From contig OZ237762.1 of the NCBI GenBank assembly GCA_965178125.1, forward strand, positions 372,001-436,000: a DNA stretch of 64,000 nt, in the 5' to 3' direction. Below, piece after piece: positions 5,231-41,877 of the stretch; the first letter of the stretch is position 1, and every line of letters begins with the position of its first letter. Made by a program: the position numbers and the translations under genes. The notes under the pieces were generated by a model. The model made no database searches and was not told the origin of the DNA. It saw only the letters and a program-made list of their open reading frames with translations. Source of the stretch: Bilabrum cf. latius. Taxonomy: Eukaryota.

Positions 5231-5580
5231 TGCTGCTGATTTTTTAACCTTTCTAGCAAGTTGACGTCGTTCGTGTGCATCGTCACCATTTTGCACTCCG
5301 GACGGAAGATGAAACGCAGCCTTGCGACCAACATCATTTGAAGATGAACTCAAACAAGTAGACCCCAGGGCTAATCGTCAAGAATGCCAGGCGCTTGATG
5401 AAGCTTTTCAAGTATAGCCCAAAATATATGATTCAAAGGGGTAATATTTGCTGCGAGGGTCGGCGCAGCTGCAGAGCTCAAGTGGATGATCGAGCGCGGC
5501 CCGGGAGCTGCCATGATGGAAGGGGTGAGGTGTGTCTATGATACTCTCGTACACTCCAGATGCATACACGGACAAAGAGC

Positions 5581-8500
5581 TCACGCCCACGCTCCGTCGA
5601 CACCCCCAAATTCACTCTCCCTCTCTTTCGCCTCCCGCGCTTGCCGCGCTTCTGCCATGCGAAGCACTCGCGCCGCTTCCTCTCTGTGAGCCTCGTGGTC
5701 CTCCCAATCCCATAGCATAGCACGAAGACGCTCGGGCAGCACGAGCGGTGGAGGCGGGGGCAGGCCGGGGGGCCTCTGTGTGAGCAGCGCATGCCAGCCC
5801 TGCCCCAACGGACGCGGCGGGCAAGACGCAAAGGTGCCAGTTGACGCCTCCTGCTGATACATGGCCAGCAGCCGCCGCTCAAGCGCATCTTCATACGGCC
5901 CACGGGCATCAAGCCAGGCGCTGGCCGGAGGCCGGCCTTTTTTAGAGGGAGGCACCACCCTGCCACCGGGTCTCGCACCCGCGCCCGACGCGGACTCTTC
6001 GTGGCCTCCATCACCTCCCTCCGTGGGCGCGCTGTCCACACCCGCTGCTTGCGCGCCCTCTAGATCTACAGCCCCCGGGGCCAGCTACCCCTGGAAGCCC
6101 TCCTGGTCCTCTTTGCCCCTTCCTCGCTTTTCCTCTGCTATCGCCCGGAGGATCGGGTTGTTGTTCGACCCGCGCTTGCTATTCGCGCTGGAGCCGCCCT
6201 GCTGCTTTTTCTTCTTCTTCTTCACGCTCACCCTCCCGCTGGTGCTGCCCTAGATGCTGCTGCTGCTTCCCGTGACATTGCCACTCTTACCGTATCCCGA
6301 CGAGGGGGCCACACGACCTGCAGCACCACCACGGCCCGCACTGCCACCACTGCCACCGTCACCGGCATCGGCGGGCCCGAGCTCTCGCATGTCCAGGGGC
6401 AGGTAACCCCTTGGCACGCCCTCCCTCACGATGTGACCGTCACCCACCAGCTCAGGAGAGCGGATGATTTCCTGCACGGCCGCCTAGCTGTGGCGATCCG
6501 AGGACCCTCGAGAGCCCAGCGCCATCACGGCACCCAGCGACACCCCTTCCTTCGTCATCGCGCCCGGCTGGAACTCCGGCCAGGCCCCATCGGTAAACCC
6601 ACGAAGCATCCGAGCCAGCCACTGCTCCCCGCCAAGCAGCAGCGTGTTGCACGTCAGCAGCTCCGGCTTGCCCGTGCCGAACTCGCGGTCCTGCTCGTGA
6701 CCCATACCTTTACCCTGGACCGACAGACCCATCCGCTGCCAGATGGTCCGTGGTGCATTCACGGTGGTGTTGATCGCCACTCGAATGGGTGCCAACACGT
6801 CCTCCTCGCCCTCACCTCCAGCAGCCGCGTCCCCTGAGCTCTCCGCAGCGGAAGACGCGATGGCAGCGGCTGCCGCTGCACCGGCATCCCTCCATCCCGA
6901 CGCACTCGTCACACCACCCATCGCATTCTCCCTGGTGCGCAAAGCCAGACCCACCAGACGGGCCGACACGCGAGGGTCCACATCGTGACCGTGCTGTGCC
7001 ATGGCTGGGCGCAGGCACCCCGGAGGCAGCGCCAGTCGGTCGTCATGACCACCGGTCGACAGAAGGCTCAGTGGGTCGCACGGCGGCAGCTCTCCCGGAC
7101 CTCCGACGGCCCGCAGGGCATCTGCGCCAGTGGCGATGCCCTGCATGGGATCGTCGCCCAGGCCCGGGAGTCTGCCTCGCAGCCTCGTGGACGTGCTAGG
7201 CCGCAAGCTGCCTGCAGACCCGGGTGGAGTGGGCGCCGGCCCATCGGATGCGTGCCCCTTATCGGCTCCGGCTCCACTGCCCCCAATGGTGCCCCCCTAC
7301 GCTTCGCCGGCTTCTTCTGCTGCAGAGGCCAGACCGGCCGATCGCGCTGGTTCCAGCAAGATCGCTTGAGTGTCGCCTTTGCCCACCCCTTCGATCCGGT
7401 GTCTATTCTGCTAGCCAAGCGATACCAGGACCCACGAGCGCATGGCTGAAAGCCGCAGCAGCCGCTGCCGCATCGCCTCCCTCACGTGCACCGGCAGCCT
7501 TCGCACCACCCGGTCTCGATCCCGGGATTCTCCGTCCCCGCGGGTGGACACCTCGCGTAGAAACGTCAGGCCACCACTCGGTGCTGCCCCACTCAGAAGG
7601 GCCCTTGCCTCGGCCAGGGACGAGACCCGTGTGGCACCTTGCGGCAGGGAAAGGGGACCCCGTTGCACCGTTCCTCGCAGCAGCCCAGCGGCCTTGGTGG
7701 CTGCGTCCGTGCGGCGGCTCTGCTTCGATTGGACGGACGGACCGTCACTTTTCCCGTCCATAATGTCCGCACCGCGGCTCAAATCAGACCCTGCGTCACT
7801 CGCAGCCGCTTTGGCCACATCCTGCTGCGACTCGCCTAGCATGCGCAGCAGCTGCGCGTTGCTTCCAAGTCGACACAGCTCCGAGATGGCGAAGAGGCAA
7901 GCCTGCTGCGTCTCTCTGGGCAGACTCGTCGGCACGTCCCTTGCTATGAGCTCCGACATGAGAGTGACAGCACCCTGCGTGCCCAGCTCGCCGGACAGGG
8001 GCGCGCTGCGTGCCAGAGCCCCCACGCACCGCGCAACCGACTGCACGATATCAACGTCGTCCGGGTACCGCCTCGCGCCTCGCAGCAGCAAGAACACAAT
8101 GCTGGGGAGCTCCGCCACCTCCAGATCCAGCAGAGACACGGGGCTGCAGTTGACGGGAGCGCAGCACGAGTGGGGCTGCAAGGGGTCATCCGGAGGTTGC
8201 AGCTCCTCGAGCGGAATCCCTGCCGTGAGGCTGGCGCCTGGCGGTGCTTCTCCTGCCCTCCTGCTTTGAGTGCCTTCATGAGGGCTTGTGCCCACACCAG
8301 TGAGCGGAGTCCCAGCCCTGTGTGCCTGCGGACTGGCAGCCCTGCCACCCTAGGAGCTAGTGGTAGTCCTGGTCTGTGGGCCAAACGTGGCTTCTGAGCC
8401 ATCACCGAATGGTCGCCGATGCCTGCCCGCGATTGGACCGCGAGATGGGGACCCGGACCCAGCTGCCCCTGCCCCTGTTCCTGCGATTGCCGCGGGCGTC

Positions 8501-11181
8501 CCAGGTGACACGGCATTCGGCACGGCGGCAGGGGTCCTCGCATGGTACTCGTTCAAGGCTTCGTCACCTGCCAGACCAAGCAACAGCTAGATAGTGGACT
8601 TCTTCGGAGGCTAGTCGTCCCCAGCTTTCGAATCCGGATCCTGATTGCCACTTGTGCGTCTTTTGCTCTCGCTATCGCCCCCTTGCTGCTTATCCTTCGC
8701 TTTAGCATCGTATTCAATACCGGCTCGACTGGCGGGGCGGGTACCTGATGGACTCTGCGCTCGTGCAGTCTGCACTTGACCGCCTAAATCGCCTCGATCC
8801 TTATCCTCAGCACTGCTGGGGCGGCTGCTGCCGGAGCCAGCACTGCCGGGGCGCAGCTCGGGCTGCATCCATCCTGACTCGCCCCTCCTGGCTGCCTGCC
8901 TAGTGGCCGCCATGCTGGCATACTCGTCGTCGCGGCTGGACACCGCCTTTGCGCTCTTGCCCCGGAACAGCCTCGGATCTGGGGGAGGGCCATGACCCAG
9001 GATGGTGGCTAAAGTGGCCATGACGCACCTGAGCGCCCTTCTGTGGTTGCGGTGGTACCGCAGCAGAAGCAGAAGCAGCTCAACATCGAGCGTGTGCGTG
9101 GCCATCGGCAGCAGAAGCTCTAACTCCGGCAGAGGGCACGGGTGTTCTAGCATTAGCTCCACGGCGCCCTCCCTGCTGCGCTGCAGTGGAAACCTCCTCC
9201 TGCGCTCTGCGTCTCGGCTCCACCACCACTCGCACACGGCCTGAGGAATCGCCCGCAGGGCAGGGCCCGAGGAGAATGGACCGGCCACAGGCGCCTGCCG
9301 ACTGCTGAACTGCATCTGTGCCGCGCCCCCGCGCCAGCCTCCTGCCGGGAATGCAGCATCGCACTGCAGCGCAGCCGTAAGCATGGCGTCGTTTCTTTTG
9401 CCAGCCAGCACTAGAGCATCACTGGTCAGCCTTGATACCTGGGGGCGCGAATCCTTCGATGCAGCTGGAGCTCGTGACCGGGCCTTCTGGCCTCGGTGGT
9501 GGGGGCTCGAGTAGGCAGCCGGGCCGAGGGTGATGGCCTGTGCAGCAGGCAGAGACCTCTTCGCGAGCGCTTCTTGAACTCCAGCGGCAGCCCCGTTCCC
9601 CGCCCGCAGAATGCGCGGCGCCAGTTCCGTTTCGAAACCGAGCAGCCTCGCCGTTCGCCTCTCGTCGGCCTTGAGCTGCTCCCATGCCACCTCCCGCCTC
9701 AGCTCAGACGTCCTCTTTCGAGTCTCCAGGCGACTCAGGTCGAGAGCTAGCCCGCCGCGAAGGGCAGCAAGCTGGGTGCCCCCTCCTTCCTCCTCTGCCT
9801 TCCGTGCCGCCCTACGCCTTCGGATCTCCCTTCTCCGCTTGGCCGCCTGCTTCTTCTGCGCCGCGGACAGCTTCGATTTGGCGCCGTCCTTGCCCAGCGT
9901 CAGACCAGCTGCACGCGCGAGAATGAGTCTGTCAGCATCATCCAGAGGCTCATCGTCATCCACACCGAGCTCCAGGGCGAGGTCATCCTCACCTTCTTCA
10001 CCCGAACCTCTCTTGCCCTAGTCGCCCTGTCCAGCTGCTCCTCCCCTGCTCGACCCGACCCCGTACTTGCTCTTCGGCTCTTCACCAGGCAGGCCCCCGT
10101 CGCCTCCCTCCTCTTCAGCAGCCACCCGCGCGTCTTCTTCCTCCCAGGCGGCGGCTTCTTGGTCGTTGCCGTACCCCTCCCCCTCGTCGTCGTCGGAGTG
10201 ATCCCACCCATTCCAGGCGCCCTCTACTCCGATCATCTGCTCGGCACCCGGAGCAAATCCAGAGACCCCTTTCTCCCGCAGCATGGCAGCCTCTTCGCTG
10301 CTCCTCGTATCCCCGCCGCCACTGCCGCTCCCGCCTCTGCCGTTGCCCTTCCCGCCGCCCCCCACATCGATCCCCTGAGGGCCCAGAGACACAGCTGCCC
10401 CCAGCCTCTCCTGCACGGCCTCCTTCTGCTGGCGGTATCTTCGAGTGGCTGATTCCTGCTCGGATAGGAGCCTCAGCCTGCGCAAGCGGGCCACTTCCGT
10501 TTCGACTGCGTGGCTCGAGTGGGTGAGCGGCAGTGCGGCTCGCAGTGCCTCGATGACTGCAGGCGGCGCGTCCGATTGCAACAGTCGAGTTTCGCCGGCC
10601 CCTGGAACAGCGGCTGGCATCGTGGCGCCATCACCGGATGGCTTTTCGATGGAACTTTCCTTCTGATGCCGGACAGGCGGCAAGTTTACGAGCGGGACGC
10701 ACAGGCGCCTAGCCGCGGCGCGCCATCGCCACACTCCGCGTAGCGCTGCTCGCAATTCAGAGATGGCCAGCACAACGTCTGGGCGGCGACTGCTGGCTTC
10801 CGTAACCATCGCTCTTTCAATAGCATTCAATCCTCGCAACATTCCAGCTTGTAGGCACTGTTGCCGCGCAGTGTCGGTTGGCTCAGCCACGAGGACCGCA
10901 AGCAGCCGGCACCCATCTGTAGTGACAGGGGCAGCATACGTGCCATGTCGTTTCAGAGAATCCATCACAGCCAAAGGCACATCCAGTTTGACCATTTCTT
11001 GGGCCATCCACGCTGCATCATCGGGTTCTAGCTCTTGTAGTAAGGATACGAGCTGATGCAGCCCTTTCGCCTGCTCCACTGGATCTGTTCTACGCAGCCA
11101 CAACAGTCGAAGAGTCCGACGAATGAGCTATTTTTCCCGCAGTTCACAAACGTCTTGGCATGCTGAAACAAGAAGACCCAT
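5581..11181 (-). CDS. Large helical ARM/HEAT-like protein, about 1,866 aa, with N-terminal MGLLVSAC myristoylation-type motif; function unknown
   Basis: Seven listed ORFs share one frame. The only interruptions are TAGs at 11128, 10018, 8611, 8587, 8350, 7411, 7297, 6484, 6250 and 6085. Ends TGA 5581-5583. ARM-like segments include VPLAVMDSLKRH...GCRLLAVL and IVQSVARCVGALAR...GAVTLM. Confidence 0.75.
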
Positions 11182-11456
11182 TGCGGCGTGCTGATTGCTC
11201 CCAATGCTTGCAATCCGTTGCGTTAATGAAAACAAAAAGGGGGGGCCCTGGCCCTGTTACGATCGAGACTGGGTCGTCTCAGTAACTCATGTTAAATTGG
11301 AAGTCAGCGGCAACTGTGGAAAATGATTCGACCCCCTTCAGTGGCAGGTTTTGATCTGGCTGCGCATTCGTCAGCTGCAGCGACCACAAGCTGATGAGCA
11401 CATGGTCGCAAGCCCCACCATCTGCCCACGGCGCCTCATGAAGCCAAGAGTGACAT

Positions 11457-14400
11457 TCAGCTTCCCAATGAGGCCACCGCAACTTCAACCCACCTGCCGT
11501 TCAAGCTGCTCCGAGTCGCCACTATGGAACCATCCACCGAATCGCCCCTAATCTGCCAAACGTCCCCATCCTCTGCGTCCCCGCCCAGGCTACCGGAGCC
11601 ATCGTTCCACGCTGCGACGATCCTACTGCTGAGCTCGGACACTGCAGTATCTTCATGCACCCCGCTGCTTCCCACGGCCAGCCTCTTGATCTCCTGCCGC
11701 AAAGCCGACAGCCCATCCGAGTCGCCCGACCGCAAACGCCTGCCAGACAGTACCATCGGAAGGCCGAGTGCAGCGCACTGCTGTTCACTACGCTGAAGCG
11801 ATCCACGTGAGTCCACTGTATCGATCACACGGGCACTCGCAATGACCACCTGGGTCAGCAGCTGCGAGCCTGCCCCAAACCCTGCCGAGACCAGCAGCTC
11901 GCCGCTGCTCTGCAGTCCAACCGGCACCCGTCGCGCGCTGTGAAACGCGCTCGTCCCTCCACCGCCCCAGAGCTGACCCATGGTCCCGGCATTAGCCGTC
12001 AAGATACTGGCAGGGCGTGTGGCAGCCCCGCCATCAGGGAGCCACGCCACCCCCATCGACACGGTCAGCCGCAAGCCGCCCTCGGCCGCAGCCTGGTCAT
12101 CGCTCTGGTCCTCGGCCTGCTTCTTTCTTTCTCCTTCCTCTCCCGTATTCCCACACGATCCGACCACGCATGCGCTACACGCCCACTTTATCGCAGTGGA
12201 CGGGTCTGAGTGCATCGAGACGACTTGGCCTCTGGGCTCCACGGGTGCCACCGCCAGCACAGTGCCGACTAGGCCCTTCGCACCGGCCGCACCGTCGTCA
12301 CCATCACCCTTTCCACGGCCAGAATCCATCAATTTGACAGAGATAGTGGCGCCTACCGGGTCAGGAGACCCCTCACGATCGTGCTTAGAAGGAGGGGGCC
12401 GCGCAGTGATCTGAATAATATCCCCGCTCGCACGAGGTGCGTCGATTCCACTGCTAGACCCACTAGCTGAAATATCCGAGGTACCCGCGCCAATTGCGGC
12501 CCTATAGCCCGGTACCTGCCCTGAGTCCAGGCCTTTGCGCCATAGGCCGCCCATGGCGCGCTTCAGAAGACTCTCCAGCGGCTCGTCTTTCTTCATCATA
12601 CCGGTGCTACCTCGCTGACTGCTGCCAGCTATCCCATCGTTCAGCTGCTCGCCTGTATTTGACCTGCCCAGCTCGGTTTCACGCAGGATGCCACGCAGGG
12701 CCTGGCGCAGGCTGGAGTTGCCTCCACTGCCGCCATCACCACCGCTGTCTGCTGCGGCTGCGGCGCCTGCGAACCTCTCGCCAATACCGCCCTCTAAATC
12801 GACATCAAGGCCATCGTCGCTCAAAGAGCCATCGGAATCATCGTCGAACCCGTCGCTGCCGCCGTGCGATGCTCCTGTACCACCAGCACTGGCTCTCTAG
12901 CGATCGACAGAGCTCGGCTGCTCCAACGCCGCAGAGTCGCCCCATGACCAACCTGAGTTCGACTCGCCGCCCGGCGCTGCCATCGCACCTCGTGCGAGCT
13001 GGTCAAAGTGCTCCATCGCCCCACTGGAGCTCTTGGCCTAGAGCTGACGAAAGTCTTCCTGTTTGCGCGCTAGGTTGGCTTGCTTGCGGTACCTGTCTTG
13101 CTGCTTGCGTCTAAGTTGCTCCTCCTTCATTCTCTATTTCCTCTCCTCCATCTCCTTCTTCAGCTGCTCCTGCCTGACCTTCTCCTGCTCCCTCATCTCC
13201 TCCTCCTTCTTGCGATCAAGCTCCAGCTGCCTCTCTAGCCGAGCCTTCTTCTCTTCCTCCGTCATCTTGGGGGCCTCTGCGGCTTTCTTGACCCTCTCGG
13301 CCATGTCTTTCTTCTGCAGCCTCTGGTTGACCTCCCGCCTGCGGATGTCCTCCCACGGCCACAGCGTGAACTCGCCCCAGATCGCCTCGAACTCAAGCTC
13401 CATCGTGGCAGCCACAAAGTAGAAATTCTTCTCAGTGACCTCCCTGCCGTCCTTCTGAAACAGCATGCCCTTCTCTTGCAGCTTTCTCCTCGCAGCAGCC
13501 ACCCTTTCCGGCGAAGGATAGAATGGTCCTTTCTTCGCCCCCTCCCTGAGGTCGCCGCCCCCGGCCTCTCGTGCCATGTCCCTCGACGCTTCTGCTTCCG
13601 ATGAAAGCATCTCGTACTGCGCCGGAAGCGCTTTGCTGTCGCGGTTATAAATCTTGGAGGCCTCCCAAATCCATCGAATGTCGGCAGCAAAGTGACCTAG
13701 GTCACGGTAGGCCATCACGTCATCGTCGTCGAAGGGGGTCTGGAGCTTGCTCTGCACCGTCTACAAGTCCATGGGGGCCTTGCCCCCGATCGCATCAACG
13801 TACGCGGACGCAATCGCAGGGAACAAGATCCCGATAGGGTGGTCAAACACGTTCTTGACATACTGCTTGAGTTCCTGTCCGTTGAGCCTCCGCAGCACCT
13901 TCTTCTGCAAGGGCTCTTTCCATCTAGAGTGCGAGAAGAACCACACCGGCTCCTTGCCGATTTCTTCGTCCCGCTTCCGGCGATGCCTCCTCCTAGCGAG
14001 GTCGCCGCCGTCAGCAGCAGCCAGGCGAGGCACCACCTCGGCCAGGAACTCGCAGGCCAGCCCTTCGTAGTAGTCGAGCAAGTGCTTGGCCCAAAGACGC
14101 ATCCTCTGGTCGTGCCTCCCGTCCTCTTCTCCGTGCTCCTCTTCAGTCCTTGTGTAGAATTGGATAGCCGCGCTGAAGCACCACCTGATGTCCTCGTCGA
14201 ATTCCTTGGCTGGCTGCTGCACGTGAAGGTTCTCCACTTGGGTGCTGATCCGATCCAGCCACTGCTCCTGCCTCTTGCCCTCGAGAAACTTCTTCCAATC
14301 CTCTGCTCGCCTGCTCTCGATGGGGCCCCGCGCGTAGAAGGACCTCCTGAATGGCTGCGCGAAGGGGTGGTCTGATAGCTGCCGCAGCACGTCCTTGATC

Positions 14401-17400
14401 AGTTTCTGAGAGCCCTGGAGCTCTAGTGCCCGGGGTTTCTTTGCGGGCGGTTGACCCTGCTGGGATGGTGGGTGTGCGTGTAGGTGCCCAATTGGGCGCT
14501 TCTGTCCTCCTTTGCGATGGATGGCGGGCGCACCGGCTGCGGCTGCGGCGCCGCCAGCCCCGAATGCACCGCTCTTCCTGCCTGACACGGAAAACGATAT
14601 CATCGGCGTATTCTAGTGCGCTCCCTTTGCAACCGGTGTGCTGTCAAACCCCTCTGCCGTAACACTGACCTGCCGCATTGAACGGTGCGATGATCCAGGC
14701 ACGCTCGAACTGGCTGCAACTCCTCCTCCGCCGAGCTTGAGCTTGATCTTGGGAATGCTGATCTTGGGCACCCCAGCCGACTTTCTCGCTTCCTGCTGCG
14801 CAGCACCCTTGCCAGTGAAGGAGCTGCCAGCTACACCAGAAGTCCAAGCTGCTGGTTGCGCGCCACCAAGAACGCTCTTCGATGCAGACTTGGTGCTTCC
14901 CAAGGGCTACCTCCCGGCACCCTTGCCACCCTTCCCCCCCTTGCCGCCAGCAGCAGGCTGCTTCCTTGGCACTGGCATTCTTGGCTGCGGGATCGACAAG
15001 CCGACTGGCGGCTGCATGCTTGGCTTCATGGGGCTGTTGAACGCTGCATTGGTCCTGCTGCTGCTGTTGTTGCTAAATCCGGCGGGCCTGGCGCTGCTGG
15101 ACCTGCCGGACGGATCGAGCCCCGGGCTTGCCTTAGGCTTGCCTCCCGTAGGTTCAACGGACTTCTTGCGCGACACAGAAGACGGTCTCTTGGCTCTCTG
15201 GGCAATCTTTTGCACTGAAGGGTTGATGACGAGGGCTTCAGGAAGGCTGGTTCGCTTGTAGTCATATCCCGCGACGTTTGACTACGTCTTGCTAGCGAAG
15301 GCCTTGACGGTCTGGCTTGCGCACCACAGCAAATCTTCTGCCCCGTCCCGATTGATCCCACCAGTCTTCTGCAAGTGCGCGCAAAACTGCTTGCAGTTGG
15401 ACTCTATCAGGTTTGCGTCGTCCAGCACGGCGAACACGTCAGCATAGTGGGCCGCAAGGAGCTTTGCCTCGATACAGTCGAGGTCCATGATGGTCTTGAT
15501 CACCCCCGGGTACTCCCTGTAGTCCTTGAAGGACACCTCGTGCTCAAAGGCAGCAGCCACGTTGTAAGGTTCTTTCCGCTTCCTCACCGACACTGTGTGG
15601 TCGCGCGTGTCCTTCACAACCTTCAGCATAGTGTCAGTCAGCTGCCTGCCTTGCTAAGGAAGACCCTCGTAGGCGTGCAAATCCATGCTAGCCCTGTCGA
15701 GGGTGTGATCCCCCCGTCTTGGCGGCAGTTTGGAGCCGTACTTGCTGAGCTTGCCCCTGTACAGCTGCCTGGCAGCAGCCAGTGCCGCAGCGGTGGGCTC
15801 GCCGCCGCCTGTCGATCCAGATCGCGAGGATCGCCCGCTGCCTGACGCCTTGACGTTGCTCGAGCTTCGAGATGCCGGCCTGCTCGACACACCAGAGCCA
15901 CTGGCACTGTAGCTTGACGAGCTTGGTCCAATGGAAGGGTCAGCCAGGGCCATCAAGTTTGTCGAAGACGAGCTTGATGACGGCATGCTGGCAGCAGCTG
16001 CTGCAGCCAAGCCTCGCGCAAGCAGCTCGGCAGAAGCGCCCCCGGACGCATGCGCTGGGGCTGGCGGCAGGGGCGGGAGCGGCTGCAGCTCGAGAGCCCC
16101 AGCACTGCTACTGCCTGCACTGAGCACGGGCAGCGATGCTCCACCAGGGGCGGGTGCCTGAACCCCCTACTTGATGGGCGAGCCGCTCGAGTGGATCGCC
16201 TAGATCTTTTCCAGCATGCCCTTGCCCCCAACCGCTTCCATTTTCTTCAGCACGTCGTCATCATCGTCATCGTCGCTGTCGCTGTCGTCATCGTCGTCGT
16301 CCTGCATGGCAGCGACAGCAGGATCCTTCCTGCTCGCTGCTTGCTGCATCGTGGCAGCCATCTCGGCTAGGGAGGCAGAGACCTGCCGGCTTGGGACAGG
16401 CGGCCGAGCGACTGGTCCAGAGCTACTGGTTGCTTGCTTGGCGGATGCCTGCGTACTGCCGCTGCCAGCTCCACTGCTGGCGGCCTTGCCAGACATGGAC
16501 GCGGCAGCACCGCTGCTTGACGTGCCGAATTTCGTATCAATAAACCTGATTATCTCAGCCCGCTGATGGGGTGGGACCGGCCTGAATGGCATCGCTGCGA
16601 CCACTTCGGCCCAGGGCAAGCCCGGCAGCAACCGAGCTGTGTCTCGTTGCAGCTGCCTTGCGAGCGTCGCGCCGTCGTGAATGACTAGCCGGATGATATC
16701 AGCTGCATCTTTTCCGTTGCTCACGAGGAGGTCCTTGTTTGCTTCGAAGGTAAGTCTCCTGGCTTTGCAAGGGGCCTCGATCACCGCAAGAACCGCCGCG
16801 ATCGCCCGCGCCTCAGTTCTGTACTCGTACTAGAAGAACCGCCTGTAGACAGACCCAAGGCCGGCATCGCCTGGCATTCCGAAGCTGCGATACTGCGCAG
16901 CCAATGTTGGGTACATTGAAATGGGCCGCTGAAAGACGGAGTAGTCTATCTGGATTCCCAGCGCCTTCAGCTTGTCCGCCTGCAGGAACCACCGAGCCGT
17001 CTCATGGTACACCTCGGCGACCTTGGCAAACCCCGGCATCTCCGGTGCGACGACTGACCCGGGCGCTCCGGGGATTGGCAGGGGTGGCGACCTGAGCCGG
17101 AACTCCGTGTCTAGCCTAACGAGGTGCTGCCAGGCGTTATGCCACGTGGATAGGTCGACAATGTGGAACTCTAGCGCATTCGTGTAGACTCTCCTCAACT
17201 CGTGGGCGAACTCCTGAGCTGTTCGGAACGGTGGCTTGCCTGAGTCTTGCGACGATGATGAAGATGCTGCTGATGCTGCTGCCTGCGGTGCTTTCGCGTG
17301 CAGCCTCTTGCTTACGTCGAGCAGGAACGCGGGTGACTTGACCAGGCTCAGGTACTGGTCCTCCATGCCGCGGAGGGACTTCATCGGGTCAGGAGCGAAT

Positions 17401-18083
17401 ATGTTGCGGTCCACTTGCGAGAATTGCGGCCATGCTGCTTTTGGTGCCTTGGGTAGCGGTTTTTTGCTGTTCTTGTTCGGCAGGATGCGGGTGAAGAGCA
17501 CGGCTTGGCACGCAGCGATGTGCTCGCGTGGGAAGCCGGGACGCTCAAACCACTGCGCGGTCTAAAATGCAGTCTAGCGATCCTTCTCTGCGCTTTTCAC
17601 TGCCGATAAAACTTTCGACGGTGCCTGTTGCAGCAGTTTTTTGGCCCCATCCGCGACAATCTGGCGAGCTGGAACGCCATCGTTGAACTTGACCGCATTC
17701 TACCCTATCTGCCTGAGATCTGACTCGAGCTCTGCAACGCTAGTATACTGGCACACATATGCATACCTTCCTAGCTTGTCCGAAACTTTGACGAGATCCA
17801 CTGCGAATGACAGAGAGGGTTGATAATCAACGACAGGTGTGTACGAGACGCAAACCTCTCTGGTCGACGCGTATGCGAGACGCTCACTTGGTGTACTGAT
17901 TGCCTTCATATATTCAAGGCGAACCGTAGGGTCTGTAATTCCATCCGGAAGTTTGATTGCAAACAATGGGTACGTCTTTTTCAGCGTGTCCACCAACTTG
18001 CGCAACTTGTCATGCAGCCACCAATCAATACCAATACCACCACCTACGGGCTCCAACTGCGCCGAAGATGCAGATGCATGCAT
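11457..18083 (-). CDS. Multi-bromodomain protein (up to six bromodomain-like units), about 2,208 aa, with a coiled coil and a low-complexity C-terminus
   Basis: Ten ORFs in one frame joined across 14 TAGs (17700, 17574, 17562, 16830, 16200, 16167, 15654, 15282, 14907, 14613, 13761, 13134, 13038, 12897). Ends TGA. Bromodomain motifs: YPGVIKTIMDLDCIEAKL..Y..DDANLIESNC, PMDL*TVQSKL...FAADIRWIWEASKIYN, HPFAQPF, EFAHELRRVYTNA. Confidence 0.85.
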
Positions 18084-18195
18084 AGATCAGGCGAAAATCA
18101 AGGATCTGTTGGCTAAGTGATGCAAAATGTGGTTCAGCCCCGTCCACTCGTCACCGCGAGCAGAGCAACGCAAATTCTTTGACTTCACAGGATAT

Positions 18196-21040: not shown

Positions 21041-21075
<35 letters not shown>

Positions 21076-21927: not shown

Positions 21928-24159
21928 ATGAACACTGACGCCTTACTACTTGCTGTATCGATACCTTTAATCAGTGTTATATCAATTGCACGCAAGGTGG
22001 CGAAAAATGCCGGATTACGTTTTGTAGCGGAAGGAAAATACGGCAGTGTGTTTAGGTGCGACAAGACTTGGATGCATGCGCTGGCTAAAGGCACAGAAGA
22101 TGACTGCATACCACAAGTGATTAAAGTAGCTAAAAAGACGACGAGCGCGGATAATGTTTCCATTCATAAAGTAGGGGCGGCCCAAACAGTTCGGGCTACA
22201 ATTGAAGCTGCTGCCGCAAGGTTGAACGTATATGCTTGTCCCCGCACTGTGCGAATGAATCAATACGCTGGGCAGCTCCTCTTTGAATTGCAGTCGCACT
22301 CTGTGTCTTTTTCGTGGCGCAAGTCTTCGCCACTGCAAGACTCTGCCGCAAGCCAACGGGATGCCACATATGGGCCGACGCGTATCGACCTGAAGAGGAT
22401 AAACTCGCATTCAATCGCATTATGCGGCGGGTCTGGCTTTGCAATTGAGATTAAACCGAAGTCAGGAACGTGGTGGTCGCCAGAATCATCCCATGCTCCG
22501 GCATTCCGAGCCGATGCCGGCGAGATTACATGGAGACCGCATGCAAGCCTCGTGAGCTTCTACCGCGCTCAGTAGAAATGGAAGGCCATCAAGAAGGGTA
22601 CGATAGGGACAACATCAATGCATGATCCCGTTCAATTCTTCATGGCAGCCTACCCGGGAAGTTCAGAATCCGCACAAGAGACTCTTCCTGTCTCGCGACA
22701 CAGTGCACTCGGGGCCCAGCCGATGCGTGCACGCCCAGCGCTTGCAGAGCAACCCAGGTGCGAGTCACGAGCTAATTAGTTCGCGTTGCTTGTGCTTAGA
22801 CTGTTAGCCTGCCCGTAGAACAACGTGAGGGTCTTCATCTCGCCCTCAGTGCCCCACCTCTCTTTGAGTGGAACTGATGTAGCAGCCCGCGGTGCATCGC
22901 GGCAGACCGCTGTGGTACTCGGCGCCCTCAAGCAGACAATCACGTGGTTTAATGAAAGGTTGAACTGCTTTGCGTGCATGCTGCGCGACTTATTGTACCC
23001 AGTGACCTACAACGGTCTGCAGTGCGCGGTATCTGGGGAGATGCTGGGCAAGCAGCACACCGCTGGGCAGGCTTTCTCGCTGTTGCAGCGCGCTCTCGCT
23101 TCAAACGGCGTCATTTCGAGGGTCCGTGCAAATCTTGTCGACCGATCCGTCGACCGGTCGGCCACTAGGTCTTGTACAGCCCCGCAGTAGTACGGTTGTG
23201 ACGATGCCTCCTCCCCACCCGTATCCGAGGCTGGCGGCTCGATCGAAAAACCAGTGCATCCCCCAGTGCCTCCTGCCGCGCGGCTGATCGCCCGAGCCAC
23301 TGGCATGGTGCTGTCAGACAATAGCGACGTCATTCGAGCCCTGCATGAGGTATAGTGCAGGTCGGCGGTGCTGGCGGGCAGGCCTGCCTACGATGCCTTC
23401 GTGCGGTTGCTTCGAGCTGCAGAAAGCAAGGTTGACGAGGCTGAGGCAGATGACCCGGGAGCTAGTTCATAGCTCAGTAGCCTGGCAGATGCACCAGAGA
23501 GGCTGGCAGAACGAGTTAAAGATGCAGTCGACTACTTGCAGAAGAATCGTAGCCATGATTCTGCTGGAAGGGGAAGAGCAGAGCGCAGCAACGGCAGTGC
23601 CGAGGTTGCAATTTGCAACGGCAACACTGCCGTGCATCGTGATTTGAAGACTCTATTAGAGCTTTCAGAACTCATCTAGAAATCCAATAGCGGTAGCAGG
23701 GCAACGAATTTGACCCAGATTGATCCATTGAAGCTCTCAGGGACTGATGCCGACGTTCACGCCGTTCGTGTGTACTGCGAGTTCAAGACGGCTGGTGACG
23801 CCTCGATCATCATTGGATTCCGACCGGCAAGGTGCAGCCCCAGTGCTGGTCACAGCGACGTTTCGGTCGGTGCTGGGACCAGTTTTCTGCATGGGACTTC
23901 CCCTGTCGCGGCACCAGGCGGAGTCAGAGCGGGGTTCATTCCCACGCCTACAGGCGAGCGCGCACTGAGTGCGCAGCAAAGCTAGCAGAAGTTGGGCGGA
24001 AAATCGGCCCCAGCATGCAATTATGTAGATGGTTATGCCTACACGATAGGGCTGGTTGATCTGGAGCTGAAGCAGTGGCACAGGGTGCCCTACTGGTGGG
24101 CCATGGAGCAGCAGGTGGCAGCAGTGCAGCACGTTGGAGCTGGACCTCTTGCTAGCTGA
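21928..24159 (+). CDS. IPK1: Inositol-pentakisphosphate 2-kinase, about 743 aa
   Basis: Family motifs appear in order in one frame: FVAEGKYGSVF, IEIKPKSG, VSFYRAQ*KWK, P*NNVRVF, LHEV*, TAGDASIIIGF, IGLVDLELK. Eight TAGs at 22573, 22777, 22816, 23188, 23353, 23470, 23677 and 23983. Ends TGA. Start uncertain. Confidence 0.88.
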
Positions 24160-24363: not shown

Positions 24364-26070
24364 TCAGGTTGCCTGCACCTCGGCTTTCCCCATGCTTCCC
24401 ATCTCCAGCCCAACGCGATCGTCCATATTCCCTCGCATGCGTGTTGCCCGGCCGTTGTCGCCGAGAGCTGCAATACTGTCACCATGCGAGTTCTCACCGA
24501 ACACAACCGGAGGTGGGTGGCTGAGTCTGGTGGCTTCCTCCAGCGACTCACCCGTATGATCCACAGTGAATGCAAGCGTCCAGAGCGCCCCTGCAAGTGC
24601 CAGTGCCGCGCACACATACAGAACCACGGCAAGACCCTTCTGCACGTCTTCTTCAGAGCTGCCATAAGCGTGCAGAAGCGGTTCAAGCCCCGCACCTCCA
24701 ATCACAGCACCCAGCTTGCCGGAGGCTGCGCTGATCCCGTGGCACGTGGCTCGAATGATGGTGGGAAACGACTCTGCTGGCAGGACGTACGTAGTTGTGT
24801 TCGGACCAAAGTTGCTAAAGAAGAACGTGGCCCCATATAGCGCCACAAAGAGGCCGTGGAGGCTGCTTTCCAGCTGCCCGAGGGCCATCCCGATTACTGT
24901 AAATAGGACACAAATCGCCAAGAACCCTTGCAGCTGCATGACCCTGCGGCCAATCGATTCAATTGTTAGCACCGCCACAATGTACCCCGGCAGAGCAATG
25001 CCAGCCACGATCAAGTTTCCTATCGCAACGTGCGAGATATCCTTTCCTCCAACGCCCGCTGCCTGCAAAATGCCGGCTGCAAACAGGCCATTGGCATAGA
25101 ATACCACGTCGAAGATGAACCAAGACCCACTCGTCCCAAGAAGCACCCACCTGTAGTCCCAAAGAAGCTGCCACCTGTCCGGAGGTGCATCACTCTTGCT
25201 GTCGCCGGGCTGCGACTCTTCGGCGTACGTGGCAGGTGCACCGGCCAGCCTGAGCTCTGCCTGATTCGTGTGTCTATTAATGGGGTGCGAAGGATCCTGG
25301 AATGCAGCCCCAGCCTCAGCCCCAGCCTCTGCCTCAGTCTCTGCAATCTCCGAGGTGTCCACTGCGTCGTAGCTCACGTGGGAGCAGGGGCTGCCCGGAG
25401 CATCGCGATTGGATCCATGCACAAGCGGGGCTTCGTCCCCTGCTGCTGAGACCTGATGCGTACTGTGCTCGAACGACGCGCTTTCTTTCATTTGCACTCG
25501 CCAGTAAATCGTGAGGAGGCCCGGGACACCCCCCAGGAAGAGCGCGATGCGCCACATTGCGTCGTACCCAAGGCCAGAGTGCAACAATGCAACACCTACA
25601 AGGGCCGCTAGCACATTACCGACGCCCTGCATAGCAAATACTGAGCTTATACTTCGTCCCCTGGTCTCATCGGAGGATGCCTCCGACGACACGCTCGCTG
25701 CCACGGCATACTCACCCCCAATTCCTAGACCGAGCAGCCCTCTCCAACATGAAAGCTATGCGTATATGCTAAAGGCTGCTGACTGGAAGGACAGGGCGCT
25801 TCCGAACGACCCGACAATGACGCAGGACAGAGTAATTATAAAAATTAGCCGTCGACCAAACAAGTCGGCTAGGTACCCGAACGTCAGCATTCCAATCATG
25901 GCACCCACCAGGGCAGCACTAGAGACCATACTCGCCTCAGCGTCAGAGATTGTCTGCACGCCCTCATCCATGATGCGCTTTGTAATGTTGATAATGAAGA
26001 GATCATACGCTTCGCTTGAAAAACCAATTCCAGCTATGAGTAGTTTAAATGCAGGAGAGTAGTCCGCCAT
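24364..26070 (-). CDS. Inorganic phosphate:H+ symporter (PHO84/PHT1 family, MFS), about 568 aa
   Basis: GIGFSSEAYDLF, GYLADLFGRR, WRGLLGLGIGGEY, VFAMQGVG, WFIFDVVFY, NFGPNTTTYVLPAESFPTIIRATCHGISAASGKLGA. One TAG at 25756-25758. Ends TGA. Confidence 0.93.
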
Positions 26071-26472
26071 GAAATGGATGTCGCTCGAAGCAAGCTTGGA
26101 ATGTCGGCTTTGGATGCAAAAACGCGACAAACGAACGAACGAATCTTAATTTTCGAGCAACGCGACAAAACTGTTGCACCTTCAGGGGAACCTTTTGACT
26201 TCGCCGTCGGCGCTTAGATTCGACCCGGAATCCCGGATTGATCGGAGCAACAGCAACCCCAAAAAGCAAACCCTGCCAGAACTACTTTCTTCTTTAACTG
26301 GTGCTCAGGCCATCCTTGCGATCGAAAGAGCCGCGGTGCCTCCAGTACACCTCCCACCTGCACGATGCGTAAACAGCCAGAATGAACCCTGCAGTGCGAC
26401 AGGTAGGAACACAGCTCGATGATTGATGTCCTTGCTCCCACCCTCGCACCTCCAGGCGAATACCAGCGGCAA

Positions 26473-27619: not shown

Positions 27620-30600
27620 TCACACGATCTCGCTCGAGAAGCCGGCCTTGGCACCGGTGGCAGCAGCTGCTGGCCGCGCTTGATCGGCTGCACCGGCGCC
27701 TGCACCGGCCTTCTTGGCGGCGGCTGCCTTGGCGCCGGCATTGGCAGCTGCATCGGCCTTGCGGCTGCGCTCGGGTCTGCATAGGAAGCACGCGGCAGCT
27801 GCCGCAGCCAGGGCTACCACGCCGCAGACCGCGATGATGGCGATCACGCCGGTGCTCAGCGCATCATCGTCATCGGCGTCGTCAGGCAGCGGCGGCGCCT
27901 CTTCCACCTCGATGCTCCCAGACAGCGTCTCGCGTTCCACCACCGCGCTCGCTGCGTTCACCTGGATCGCCTGCTGCAGCTCGGCGGGTGCAGCCGCGCG
28001 CAGGTCGTCCACCAGGCTCCTCCTTGTCCCTGCTGCCGGACTGGAGGAAGTGGCAGCCACGTATGCCTGCAGCCCAGACTCAACCGCGGTCTCGTCTGCC
28101 CCCGCTGCGAGCAGCAAGGTGAAATCCACGTCGACAGCAGTGCCCTGCGACTGCGCCCGGCGGCCTGAGCCAGCAGCGGTCCCTGCCCCTGCTCCTGCCC
28201 CTGCTGCCACCACGCGGTCGATGGCCACCTCTTGTGCCCCCGTGCTGTTCCGGACGGCGCGCTTGAAGGGCTCCTGCAGATCACTGGCGAACTGCGCCGG
28301 GGTCACCCCGGTGATCTGCAGCTCGCGCATGCTGATGTACGTGCCCGCCTCGCGCACGGGTGCCACGCACCGCCTCAGCTCATTGGAGCAGATGAGCTCG
28401 CCCGCGCAGTTGACGGTGGCGATGCAGGCCCTTCCCTCGGAGCACAGAGGGCACGAGTCATCGGACGGATCGCCGCAGTCGATGTCCGATTCCTCACCGT
28501 TCTTGACGCCATCGGAGCATGTCAGCAGGTCATCGTCGTCCTCCTCGGAAACAGCAGCAGCCGCCGAGGTCGAGGTTGAGGGGGTCGCCGAAGCTGCAGC
28601 AGACGTTGATGGCGATGCGCTGGCAGTAGTGCTTGGGCTGGCGCTGGCCGTTGTGCTGGTGCTGGGGCTGGTGCTCGGGCTGGCCGTAATGCTGCTGCTT
28701 GGGCTGGCCGTAACGCTGCTGCTTGGGCTGGCCGTAACGCTGCTGCTTGGGCTGGCCGTAATGCTGCTGCTTGGGCTGGCCGTAACGCTGCTGCTTGGGC
28801 TGGCCGTAATGCTGCTGCTTGGGCTGGCCGTAATGCTGCTGCTTGGGCTGGCCGTAATGCTGCTGCTTGGGCTGGCCGTAATGCTGCTGCTTGGGCTGGC
28901 CGTAATGCTGCTGCTTGGGCTGGCCGTAATGCTGCTGCTTGGGCTGGTGCTGGGGCTGGTACTCGGGCTGGTGCTCGGGCTGGGCGATGGTGATGGCGCG
29001 ATGATGGCCATGAGGGCGGGCTCCTTGCCCATCCTGCCCTCATCCACGATCATGGCGACAGCGACCGTCGGATCCGTGGGGTTCGATCTGGGCACTCGGG
29101 CAAAGGGGTGCACCTTGCCTGCATCGTCCGTGTCTTTGCCAAGGTCGAATACCTTGCACTCGTTATCTCCCTTGAAGTAGCACACCACCACCTGATTGAC
29201 CGGGTCATCGTCGTTGTCCTCTGAGTTGCTGTACGGTTCCCAGCACACGGCCTCGCTGCCGATCCGGTTGATGCGCGGGTCTGCCAGCTCTGGCAAGAAC
29301 CTCGGCTCGCAGGTTACGTCGAGCAGCTCGCCCGACGGAACGTCCAGTCGAATCAGCTCCGACTACGAGTCGTCCGAAATGCTCCCCGACCCGCCTCCTC
29401 CCGGTCCGGGCTGAAGACGTCTCCTCCTGCTCGTCTCGAAGGTGATCAGCAGCACGTCCGTCTCGTCCAGCACGAACGCGTGCCGCACCAGATCGGGCAC
29501 GGTGAATTTCATCAGGGGCTCGTTCAGGCCGCGCGTATTCCACAGGCGGAGCACCAGCTCCTCGCCTGATTCCCGCTTTTCCATCTCATCGTCGTCGTCG
29601 ACGGTCACGTCTACCTCCGCACCCACCGTCACCGCGATCACCCCGCGCTCCCCGGACACGTCAGACACCACCCCGGTTCCGTTGGGGCCCTGGTACCATT
29701 CCCCCGGGCTGGCTCCCACCACCCGGATGTCCATCTTGACGATCTCCTCCATGGCGCCGTTGGCGTCAAAGTGGATCGCGCGGGAACGTCCTGCAAAGTA
29801 GGTCGCTGCCTCCGCATCGTCATCAGTGTCATCGTCCTGCTCGTGCTCAATGCCGAAGAGCATTTCTCCGGTCATCCCGTTCATGATAGGCATGGGGTGC
29901 CAGAAGTTGACCACGTCGTCGTCGTCGTGCAGCTCGCTGATGAGGTCGTCGCTGATGCTGCCGCCGTTCTGGATCTGCGGGCCGGCCGCCAGGTTCTGCG
30001 TGTCCCAGGACACAATATCAGCACCGCTGCCGTCAGTCTGCATCAAGTCGACGAAGAACCGATCGTACAGCACCGTCACCGCGCTAAAGACGAAGTCAGA
30101 GTCGTCTGTCTCGAATTGCTCGCTTGCCTTCGTGATGTTGGCGTCGGCGCCCAGGTCTGCCACCATCGGGATGTACTCTTCCTCCTCGTCGATGAAATAA
30201 ACGAACCTCCCGTCGCCCGCTGTCTCTGCCGCCGCGTCCCCGTCGGGGCTGAGCTCGACGTCGCCTCTGATCATGACAGGGGCGTGGTGTCCGTCAAAGT
30301 AAAAATGCGTGCTCTCATCGGCCTGCTCATTGTACTGCTCGAACAGAATGAAGCCGCGCCCTAGGCCTCTCTTGTAGTACTGCAGCCGGACGTAGTCGTC
30401 ATCGAACCCTTGGCTTGTCTGGTACGCAGTGATCTTGGGCGACTAGGGGTTCATGAGCGGGTGCACGGGCATCTGCGAGGCGAACTCGAGGCGGACTGCA
30501 CCGTCGCCAATACGAGGCCCCTCCGCGATGCAGGCAAAATCTATCAAGGTAGCGTTCTCGAACTTCATGCACAGCGCACCGTCGCCACCCCTGGTGAAGG

Positions 30601-32566
30601 CAGACTCCTCATCGCTGCTGCCATCCGTAAAGGACGGGCTCGGGTTGAACAAAGTCTCCTCCTCAGGTAGCCTGGCACCTGCCTCCGCAATGGCCGCGGG
30701 CCTGAAGACCAGGAGCTCCTGGCCGTCTGAGTACCTGTACTGCGTGATGCCGAGAGTGGTGACGCTGTTGGCACCGCTGCTAGTGCTCACGGAGGCGAAC
30801 GGGAACTCATCAGCAGAATCGTCGAGGCCCCGCTGGAACGTGCTCGCCGCGACGAACGCCGGCGTGTCCTCGGTGAAGCTGTAGAAATACATCGCGTGCG
30901 GGGTATCGCTGTTAGCCTCCTCGTCCGGGTTCATGTAGAACATCATGCCGTGACCCTGCCCCCCCCCTGGAAGTTCGTACTCGACGTGCATGGGCTGGTG
31001 GTCCGATACCGCCGCCTTCTCCGCGCCCGGAAGTATGTGGCCCAGGCCCGTCGCGCGGCTGACCAGCACGAGGGTGGTGGAGGTGGTGGAGGGGCTCGTG
31101 ACGTTCTGGATGCGGAAGGTGGCGTACTCGTCGCTCCACGGGGACAGATCCCCTTTGTTTCCACTGCTGTAGCTAAAGATGCCGAGTGCAAGCTGCCCTG
31201 TCAGGCTGGTGTCGAATGCCTGTCCGTCGATTGGCACGGGGTCCTGCCCCAACTTCCAGGTGACAGCCACCTCGCCCATGCGGTACGTCTGGTCGTCGAA
31301 GGCGAATGCCACGCCAACCTCCTCTGAGACTGCGTAAATGTACTTGACGTCGAAGTTGAGGGTCTGAGACGGAATCACGTCCTCCAGCTTGGTGATGGTG
31401 TCGGCGGGGAGCTCCCATGCGAAGACACCCTCCTTCACCCCGGTCTTGACGTACACGGTGCCATTGACGGCCGCAGCGATGATGTCAAACTGGTTGCTGA
31501 TATCTAGCTGGTCGGGCATCATAAAGGTGGTATTCTAGGAGTCCATGTAGCAGTGCACGTGGTTGTTAAACGAGGTGTCGTCTTCGTCACGCCCATTGTC
31601 CGAGTGCCAGCAGAGCAGATCGTCGGAAAGCACCGCCACGTTGCGCACGTTCGAGCTCGACTTGCGGAAGCTGGAGCCGGCGGCGTTGTCGTGCAGCTTG
31701 GTGAACGTAGGGCTGGATGAGGGCTCCGATAGGTCTGCCCAGAAGAGCTCGTAGTCCTCGTCCCCGTCGTGGCCCACCGTCACGAGGTATTTGTCGGCCC
31801 AGGCCCACACGTTCGCGTTCCAAAAGCCAGCACCGGCCACCTCCACGATTTGGTTGCCGGTCGGCAGCCGAGTGTCCCAGCAGTAGACCGCGCCATCCAT
31901 GATACCTCCATTCTAAGGTTCCATTTCAATGCCCACGCAGCGGACGGCTCCGTCCGCGAGGCTTACGTGGGAATTTGAATCGGGCATGAGTTTACGGCCA
32001 TCTCCTGCCAGGGTTGCCAGCGCGGTTCCCTCTCCAAAGGAATCGTTGAAGCCGAGCGGAAAGACTTCACCAGATGTGATGTTGACTGCATCCCAGCGGT
32101 ACTGCCTCCAGGCCGGGATTCCAAGGTTTGTTGGAGGTCGGCTCGCCTGTGTCACGAACTCCACTACATCTTCTCTTGCCATGAACGAGGCATGAGGGTC
32201 GCATCCGCTCGAGGTGCCTGGAGCATAGTCTTCAAATGGTACAAACAGGGTGTTGTCGTCGATTCCAGGTCCGCTGAGCTCGAGTTGCAGCGCGACGTCA
32301 TCATTTGCAGATTGTGACAGCCTAGCGATTGAAACCTCACTGCCATGGTTAGTGGAAACACAGCCCACCAGAGCCTACTCACGAACCTGAGTAAACGATT
32401 TTACAACGTGGTATACGTTGGGAGCTCCGTTGAAGTCGTACTGTGCTTGCAGAAGGGTGGCATTCTGAGGGCCGGTCGTTGTCTCAGAACGTCTGGCCGG
32501 CATGGCCCAGTGCGCCATCGTAGTGGCAACCATCAGCTGCATCAGCAAGAGCATATTCGAAAGCAT
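27620..32566 (-). CDS. Large type-I membrane/cell-surface protein, about 1,648 aa: signal peptide, acidic ectodomain, Ser/Thr/Pro stalk, Cys-rich module, TM helix, short tail
   Basis: Six ORFs in one frame joined across TAGs at 32375, 31913, 31535, 30443 and 29363. N-terminal MLSNMLLLMQLMVATTMA, then TCSDGVKNGEESDIDCG...C..C..G..C, then TM GVIAIIAVCGVVALAAAAAACFLC. Ends TGA. Confidence 0.8.
28682..28945 (-). repeat. 24-bp coding tandem repeat, 11 copies, encoding SPSSS(I/V)TA (mucin-like stalk)
   Basis: The unit gctggccgta(a)(t/c)gctgctgcttgg repeats on the + strand, with 11 peptide copies in the translation. Edges are approximate. Confidence 0.9.
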
Positions 32567-32759
32567 GCTTAGACGCTGGTAGCTTGGCGCAAACACTGGC
32601 GATACTGTCTGCAGATATGCTAGATTCTGCTGTGTGCACCCCCAACGCACGCGAATTCGCGGAACTAAAAGTTCAATGCGCGGCTAATGCGCGGCGCCGT
32701 AATGCACTGTTCGCGAAGATAGCCAGGGTCAAATCACCCCAGTCTCCCTATAAAACGTA

Positions 32760-41693: not shown

Positions 41694-41877
41694 GTGCGAG
41701 AGTAGGTGCAATCCAACAGCAATGGCTCTCGAGAGATCCAGCTGGGTCAATGACGAGTTGCGCCAACTGCAACTGCTCGTGTGCATCGGCCGACACCCCT
41801 GGCAGTGCGCAACTGCAAATGACAGAGGAACAGATATCTGTATGACTGTCCGCGGGTAAACTAAAACGCACTTTTAA

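Follow-up and report, generated by a model that had tools for sequence, protein, structure and literature searches.

The window analysed here is a 64,000-nt stretch (contig OZ237762.1, positions 372,001 to 436,000, forward strand) of the Bilabrum cf. latius assembly GCA_965178125.1, which totals 48.6 Mb on 111 contigs; the contig that holds the window is referred to below as C28. It carries a gene of the inositol-pentakisphosphate 2-kinase (IPK1) family that contains eight in-frame TAG codons, which a first-pass annotation had proposed to encode glutamine. The coordinates and codons were as described there. The frame ends at a TGA and holds no TAA or TGA in its interior, and the remaining five frames over the same interval contain 6-19 TGA and 2-9 TAA apiece. 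The gene and its TAG codons are as follows.

21928..24159, plus strand: IPK1-family gene, 743 codons, eight TAG (Gln), TGA stop, intron not required
22573..22575, plus strand: TAG, residue 216; support for Gln weak (0.9 bit), with Gln also at the codon before
22777..22779, plus strand: TAG, residue 284; uninformative (~0.1 bit)
22816..22818, plus strand: TAG, residue 297; strong Gln site in a P-Q-N-N motif (~3.9 bits)
23188..23190, plus strand: TAG, residue 421; in a poorly conserved insert, faces Trp in relative P0004
23353..23355, plus strand: TAG, residue 476; faces Gln in relative P0004
23470..23472, plus strand: TAG, residue 515; uninformative
23677..23679, plus strand: TAG, residue 584; uninformative
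23983..23985, plus strand: TAG, residue 686; last TAG, upstream of DLELK

The read-through protein matched the Pfam profile Ins_P5_2-kin (PF06090) over positions 2-374 of 375 with 36.5 bits (E 5e-9; gathering cut-off 22.7 bits), and the portions before and after the first TAG scored 15.4 and 20.7 bits on their own. The protein contains EIKPK, TAGDASI and DLELK, in line with the EIKPK, TAxDxSI and DLDLK-type motifs that we take to mark the family. As had been claimed, the downstream catalytic motifs are kept, TAGDASI beyond seven TAGs and DLELK beyond all eight, and the predicted activity is that of an InsP5 2-kinase. The N-terminus (residues 1-69) is 83% identical to relative P0002. A HMMER search of 1.84 billion proteins returned four fragments only, a word-indexed protein search gave no match, and neither the whole protein nor the first-site fragment matched an entry in the PDB. 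Relative P0006 aligned with the IPK1 chain 5mw8 over both C-terminal motifs, albeit weakly (E 0.52). A single-sequence structure model of IPK1 was too poor to use (mean pLDDT 33.7).

Substitution of the TAG codons by different residues was used to compare readings. Gln was the best of eight (36.5 bits against PF06090), followed 4 bits behind by Lys (32.5) and then by Glu (31.7), Ser (31.4), X (30.6), Leu (29.8), Tyr (29.5) and Trp (29.0). With nested fragments, ~3.9 of 5.9 bits fell on the TAG at 22816, which has PQNNFRVF opposite it in the environmental relative P0004 (by eye, outside the BLAST alignment). At 23353, BLAST placed Gln of P0004 opposite the TAG without gaps, and the gain in Pfam score was not measurable. 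At 22573 the best Pfam stretch ends before the site and the sole relative there, P0005, ends one residue earlier; the register is uncertain because the preceding codon is CAG and may itself be the conserved Gln. The earlier description of these three positions as independent diagnostic sites was therefore overstated: 22816 is strong and 23353 is moderate (one relative), but 22573 is weak. The profile scoring of TAG columns that it had proposed came out for Gln overall and mainly at 22816, with 0.9 bit at 22573 and no measurable gain at 23353.

The TAG codons are reproduced in contigs from other runs. A 5,704-nt contig from run X5, possibly the source sample, covers 21045-26300 with no differences, and two contigs from run X6, which carries another study code, cover all eight IPK1 TAGs, also with no differences (four of the ten listed runs were compared; the library type is not on record). 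In runs presumed to hold RNA, the three IPK1 TAGs that their listed contigs cover were unchanged, an observation that we did not count as evidence. The IPK1 of a distant relative (P0004-P0008, 35-57% identity) is on deposit as separate fragments; one 7,113-nt contig is listed for both P0006 and P0008, and P0005 stops one residue before the first IPK1 TAG. Such fragmentation is expected when a recoded gene is called with the standard code, and the code may thus be clade-wide, but contig ends or introns could account for the pieces instead.

The assignment of TAG to Gln was supported chiefly by genes outside IPK1. Nineteen dynein heavy chains gave frames of 3,710-5,666 codons that lack TAA and TGA and contain 3-60 TAG each (411 TAG in 92,845 codons). 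Of the 411 TAGs, 249 lie in alignment columns occupied in 14 or more paralogues, and the other 162 were dropped. Where a column was at least 70% conserved, the conserved residue was Gln at 22/31 TAG, 183/260 CAG, 19/25 CAA and 7/385 GAG positions. Summed log-odds over the dynein TAG columns were +157.6 bits for Gln, −51.3 for Glu, −127.4 for Lys and −633.7 for Tyr, and all nine control codons (9/9) returned their own residue. The 29 TAGs of the Ras family gave +37.9 bits for Gln and +6.4 for Glu. The switch-II Gln of Rab proteins, whose motif was seen in 21 of 30 fetched loci, is encoded by CAG in nine, by TAG in eight and by CAA in four. Five of these eight TAGs lie within an unbroken D-T-A-G motif; the other three are situated two bases past a likely splice acceptor and are weaker evidence. 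One switch-II TAG was aligned to the Gln of Rab-31 and Rab-22A. The use of TAG at this site (8/21, Ras loci L187-L216) exceeds the 9% seen among dynein Gln codons (Fisher p 0.0004); the Ras domains are TAG-rich overall.

By hand count, family matches with in-frame TAG (eRF1, dyneins, Rabs, proteasome subunits) are spread over ~30 of the 111 contigs, and 29 of 36 frames sampled from C28 (drawn from 165 frames on 264 kb) contain TAG. This codon constitutes ~9-11% of Gln codons, its share declines with rising GC content at third codon positions (Spearman −0.85, 38 genes) as does that of CAA, and the base that follows TAG is distributed like the base that follows CAG. TAG appears to act as a minor synonymous codon that would be supplied from CAG by C-to-T changes. 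Introns as a source of the TAGs were considered and dropped for IPK1, the dyneins and five Rab sites. At least 18 of the 19 dynein heavy chains (L068-L105) are single frames over the fetched DNA, long genes being nearly intron-free, and introns are present in eRF1 and in many Rabs.

Conserved C-termini were used to provide information regarding the codons that still end genes. A prenylation motif closes 20 of the 30 Ras loci and is directly followed by TGA in 16, by TAA in four and by TAG in none. The dyneins that reach the conserved C-terminus (13/19, two judged by eye) end in TGA (10) or TAA (3); five others ran off the fetched DNA and the frame of one ends early. The eRF1 gene stops at TAA. 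TAG was hence used at 0 of 34 motif-anchored ends (26 TGA and 8 TAA; 95% bound 8.4%). The 36 C28 frames end in TGA (31) or TAA (5), TAG ends being impossible by construction, and TAG is as dense in their final 30 codons (5/1,080) as in the interior (173/31,235). TAG dips 30-200 codons before the gene end, where CAA dips too, and the sequence past the last TAG scored as coding in 7/7 cases. TAA or TGA was found inside 3/65 Ras matches, and the one inspected is located at an exon edge. These counts suggest that UAA and UGA are the only stops, with UGA dominant, and that UAA is not read as Gln, since it ends four Rabs, three dyneins and eRF1. The features of a dual stop and sense codon of the Condylostoma or Blastocrithidia type were absent, and rare use of TAG as a stop (below ~8%) would be compatible with the data.

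One tRNA with anticodon CUA was detected by Rfam and ARAGORN (G000:C23:907607-907679, minus strand). It scores 69.8 bits in Rfam and forms a perfect cloverleaf of canonical form (z −2.7) with a 5-pair anticodon stem and a 5-nt variable loop, and it is flanked by frames that use TAG. Pattern searches, which miss intron-bearing genes, returned this tRNA and two non-tRNA matches, with no second CUA tRNA and no UUA tRNA. Ordinary tRNA-Gln(CUG), in two copies, and tRNA-Gln(UUG) are present as well.

The stems of the CUA tRNA are closest to those of tRNA-Tyr(GUA), with 6/7 acceptor pairs and 4/5 anticodon-stem pairs in common, both differences being compensatory; C1-G72 and the 5-nt variable loop are also shared. 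The corresponding values are 3/7 and 3/5 for tRNA-Gln(CUG) and one and two pairs for tRNA-Gln(UUG), both of which have 4-nt variable loops. Among 224 different-isotype pairs from 22 tRNA types, none reached 10/12 over the acceptor and anticodon stems (maximum 8), a pair of stems that was picked after the result had been seen. Over all four stems, however, the score of 14/21 was matched by 5/224 pairs, and tRNA-Gln(UUG) has an identical D stem, both of which weigh against a Tyr origin; the D arm further resembles that of tRNA-Glu. The comparison was made without His, Leu and Trp, which were not recovered, and with Asp recovered in part.

The papers cited here and below were available in part, and statements drawn from them refer to those parts. 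Eukaryotic tRNA-Tyr identity consists of A73, C1-G72, G34 and U35 (PMC9976931). The CUA tRNA keeps C1-G72 and U35 but has G73 and C34 in place of A73 and G34, and thereby falls short of this set. Bacterial tRNA-Gln identity comprises G73, U1-A72, G2-C71, G3-C70, G10, U35, G36, A37 and U38, and the same source, in its available part, gives no eukaryotic set (PMC9976931). Measured against this bacterial set, the CUA tRNA has G73, G2-C71, G10, U35 and A37 and is without U1-A72, G3-C70, G36 and U38. Relative to tRNA-Tyr, its changes at 73, 2-71 and 37 all go toward the bacterial Gln set, and two of the four Tyr determinants are removed. A mutant yeast amber tRNA-Tyr took trace amounts of glutamine from E. 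coli GlnRS (PMC1483225). From these comparisons we regard an origin of the CUA tRNA from tRNA-Tyr as plausible and slightly favoured. A natural Gln suppressor derived from tRNA-Tyr was not found in the literature searched, and the 5' part of the CUA tRNA was on none of the viral contigs searched.

Several other tRNA genes of this genome are unusual. At least six dispersed genes called Met (L033, L043, L047, L054-L056) have a CAT anticodon, or CAT read in a CTCATTA loop, together with a 4-nt variable loop. They have 6/7 acceptor pairs in common with tRNA-Pro(UGG), hinting at further remoulding or at a tRNA-derived repeat.

A single eRF1 was found, with four exons inferred from GT-AG borders and homology. 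Its TAG at residue 48 has Gln opposite in 72/77 and 89/94 homologues. Identity to the consensus in the N domain is 0.60, compared with a mean of 0.88 ± 0.10 over 94 rows and with 0.76 for Cafeteria roenbergensis, whereas the divergence of the M and C domains is at the C. roenbergensis level. Departures from highly conserved columns are concentrated accordingly, 18 of 28 being within the first 134 residues, and include Ser to Val just before NIKS and both flanks of YxCxxxF; the GTS, NIKS and YxCxxxF cores are kept. We infer that the N-domain changes abolish or weaken recognition of UAG. The idea that eRF1 regulates itself by means of its two TAGs was discarded, as 2/16 Gln codons is the genome rate. 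A GlnRS above the family cut-off is present (L256, G000:C33:558064-561330, minus strand), with no TAG in the 751 codons seen; the GluRS (L257) has two. One eRF1 that bears the label Symbiodinium sp. KB8 falls among Cafeteria-like sequences (P0012, P0014-P0016), suggesting that it is a mislabelled contaminant, and Gln is shared within this Cafeteria-like clade at the site equivalent to Leu69.

The best named match of eRF1 was C. roenbergensis (69%), behind two fragments at 88% and 100%, and in a FastTree analysis of 43 rows, picked from the best 120 matches plus the query itself, it grouped with that species (local support 87). For Nad7, the only organism-named match within the top 120 was Cafileria marina (71%), behind a clade at 88-100%. 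The 38.4-kb mitochondrial contig uses UGA for Trp and encodes a tRNA(UCA), with 137 TGA and 19 TGG in 22 frames that all end in TAA. This usage is found in both bicosoecids (PMC6723347, PMC6972860), with which it is shared although not exclusive to them. A tandem 18S gene of 1,700 nt resides on contig C12, on which a proteasome gene contains TAG. The host is most probably a bicosoecid stramenopile related to Cafeteria. A metagenome scan with eRF1 returned 79 loci, none above 71%. A second 18S (L001/L107, G000:C95) is 1,802 nt long, is identical to the C12 copy at 1,411 positions and is located on a 17.9-kb contig of 54% GC; it is presumably dinoflagellate-like and probably comes from a co-cultured organism.

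Taken together, the best explanation (probability about 0.93) is a variant nuclear code of a probable bicosoecid host in which UAG specifies Gln and UGA and UAA are the sole stops, with the CUA tRNA and the altered eRF1 as its machinery. The single-copy tRNA would decode UAG and not UAA, the canonical GlnRS would charge it, an eRF1 with a drifted N domain would have lost or weakened recognition of UAG, and new TAGs would arise from CAG by C-to-T change. IPK1 is then very probably an ordinary intact gene and a true marker of the genome-wide code.

Several observations weigh against this interpretation. A second eRF1 TAG, at residue 73, faces Leu in 89/95 homologues and Gln in six, although close relatives are among the six. 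The eRF1 GTS motif, which is altered in Iotanema, is intact here. Nine of the 31 conserved dynein TAG columns are not Gln, but CAG shows the same rate. The sole CUA tRNA found is nearest to tRNA-Tyr and not to tRNA-Gln, and the tRNA census was partial, with 63 of 780 Rfam candidates scored. The lineage was taken from one nuclear protein in a fast tree and one mitochondrial protein, and a different 18S is present on C95. On DNA sequence alone, editing or partial termination may be conceived.

The alternative that survives best is that UAG is mostly Gln but ambiguous, with the CUA tRNA partly tyrosylated or with eRF1 stopping at some UAGs. The retention of two of the four eukaryotic Tyr determinants (C1-G72 and U35; PMC9976931) would fit the former and the retained GTS, NIKS and YxCxxxF cores the latter, and TAG is a minor codon that is missing from the GlnRS codons seen. 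However, a Gln/Tyr mixture over the TAG columns peaked at 2% Tyr with a gain of 2 bits, A73 and G34 have been lost from the tRNA, the anchored ends lack TAG, and TAG shows neither excess nor loss near gene ends. One dynein contains 60 TAGs and a catalytic Gln of Rabs is encoded by TAG. We therefore consider ambiguity unlikely.

Far less probable is a standard code combined with U-to-C editing of mRNA from UAG to CAG. TAG and CAG are one base apart and the evidence at the protein level would be the same for editing and for recoding, but the genome encodes a well-formed CUA tRNA and an eRF1 altered selectively in its N domain, does not use TAG as a stop, and has the same spread of bases after TAG as after CAG. 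We know of no such genome-wide nuclear editing in stramenopiles.

The remaining two alternatives can be set aside as highly improbable. That IPK1 is a pseudogene, or that its TAGs stem from systematic C-to-T errors in the assembly consensus, would suit its strong divergence (36.5 bits in Pfam and no match in the PDB or word-indexed searches), but all eight stops are TAG in a frame devoid of TAA and TGA, the same pattern occurs in the other families on the contigs counted above, and contigs filed under two further study codes show an identical sequence; the earlier argument against a pseudogene thus held, mostly on evidence from outside IPK1. A reading of UAG as some other residue (Glu, Lys, Leu, Tyr or Ser) or as pyrrolysine is suggested by the ARAGORN label 'Pyl', by the Glu-like D arm and by the two Tyr-like stems, but the margin of Gln over the second-best residue is 209 bits for the dyneins and 31 bits for the Rabs, and a canonical cloverleaf argues against pyrrolysine, the ARAGORN label following from the anticodon alone.

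A nuclear code with UAG as Gln is itself known; few nuclear codes give UAG and UAA different meanings. A 2024 list names four taxa with UAG alone reassigned to Gln, namely Iotanema, Hartmannula, Trochilia and Protocruzia tuzeti, with no stramenopile among them and, in its available part, no decoding tRNA shown for the four (PMC11687900). The fornicate Iotanema spirale, which belongs to an unrelated supergroup, likewise reads UAG alone as Gln and keeps UAA as a stop (PMC5304391, PMC9161772), and a CUA tRNA with an altered eRF1, as found here, is the expected machinery of this type. Its eRF1 carries T32G in GTS (PMC5304391), a change peculiar to Iotanema and not a defining feature of the codon table, whereas the present eRF1 retains GTS and has its changes on the flanks of GTS, NIKS and YxCxxxF. 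A tRNA derived from tRNA-Gln(CUG) was predicted for Iotanema and not seen (PMC5304391), in contrast to the CUA tRNA described above, which shares 3/7 acceptor pairs with tRNA-Gln(CUG) and 6/7 with tRNA-Tyr.

The ciliates Hartmannula sinica, Trochilia petrani and Protocruzia tuzeti have the same codon table, and phyllopharyngeans, like the present genome, show no sign of dual meaning (PMC11687900, PMC10089648). In five recoded phyllopharyngean genomes UAA ends 86.9-98.3% of genes (PMC11687900, PMC10089648), whereas UGA dominates here (26/34 anchored ends and 31/36 frames) in a genome of ~60% GC. According to the same two sources, searches of H. sinica and T. petrani detected no suppressor tRNA. 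Codes in which both UAR codons specify Gln (Tetrahymena, hexamitids, oxymonads, ulvophytes and Amoeboaphelidium; PMC11687900) share UAG as Gln, but UAA is a stop here (8/34 anchored ends) and a UUA tRNA was not found in the pattern searches. 'Genetic code 15' of phages makes the same reassignment (PMC9523058) in a bacterial RF1/RF2 system and is not a nuclear code. Cafeteria roenbergensis/burkhardae and Cafileria marina resemble this organism in having a GC-rich compact genome and mitochondrial UGA as Trp with tRNA(UCA) (PMC6972860, PMC6723347), but identities of only 69% (eRF1) and 71% (Nad7) indicate a different taxon. In the available part of the C. roenbergensis paper, the only non-standard code spoken of is that of the mitochondrion, and the eRF1 of this species has consensus N-domain motifs.

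A change of the nuclear code in a stramenopile was not found in the full-text literature searched, which covers few subscription journals and excludes supplements such as the PMC12220804 Codetta table and the eRF1 alignment that accompanies PMC5304391; the available parts of PMC12220804, PMC13524828, PMC11412368, PMC10553269, PMC10089648 and PMC9161772 describe no stramenopile case. Within this literature, the codon table is known, and the novelty lies in the lineage, the GC-rich setting dominated by UGA, the unaltered GTS and a tRNA that resembles tRNA-Tyr. A tentative joint reading, to which we give somewhat less than even odds, is that this is the first variant nuclear code of a stramenopile, possibly of a wider environmental clade, and that the CUA tRNA is a duplicate of tRNA-Tyr(GUA) remoulded to a glutamine acceptor by G34C, A73G, U2-A71 to G2-C71, G37A and a Gln-type D arm. 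If so, the code passed through a Tyr amber suppressor or recruited one straight to GlnRS, in contrast to the usual assumption of one anticodon change in tRNA-Gln. One contiguous genome provides the codon table along with GlnRS, one eRF1 and a candidate for the decoding tRNA, with C. roenbergensis as a standard-code relative for comparison, which makes it testable how eRF1 drops UAG yet keeps UAA and UGA with GTS untouched, and from where stop-decoding tRNAs come. With TAG in 29/36 frames, most genes of this organism are cut by standard gene callers, and the lineage would thereby escape notice in protein databases. Viruses that infect such a host would need to avoid UAG as a stop.

Elsewhere in the window, reading TAG alone as a sense codon opened four long frames (5,529, 2,209, 1,891 and 1,702 codons), and adding TAA gave almost no further gain. 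These and other TAG-containing frames are listed below.

47409..63998, minus strand: armadillo-repeat frame, 5,529 codons, 32 TAG, TAA end, 5' end beyond the window
11457..18086, minus strand: bromodomain protein frame, 2,209 codons, 14 TAG, TGA stop
5581..11256, minus strand: frame without Pfam match, 1,891 codons, 10 TAG, TGA stop
27620..32728, minus strand: frame without Pfam match, 1,702 codons, 6 TAG, TGA stop
3722..5377, minus strand: tetrapyrrole methylase, 2 TAG, one within the Pfam domain, TGA stop
24364..26145, minus strand: MFS transporter, 1 TAG within the domain, TGA stop, convergent with IPK1
39924..41873, minus strand: MFS transporter frame, 6 TAG, TGA stop

The transporter at 24364-26145, 205 nt from the IPK1 stop, has a phosphate:H+ symporter as its best NCBIfam match (313 bits, below the cut-off of 610). 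Inositol phosphates signal phosphate status; the proximity of the two genes may be due to chance. Two HlyIII/PAQR-family paralogues form a convergent pair at 37314-38255 (plus strand) and 38469-39371 (minus strand), neither with TAG, and a cyclin-like frame at 44078-45460 (plus strand) contains a long Gly-Ala dipeptide repeat.

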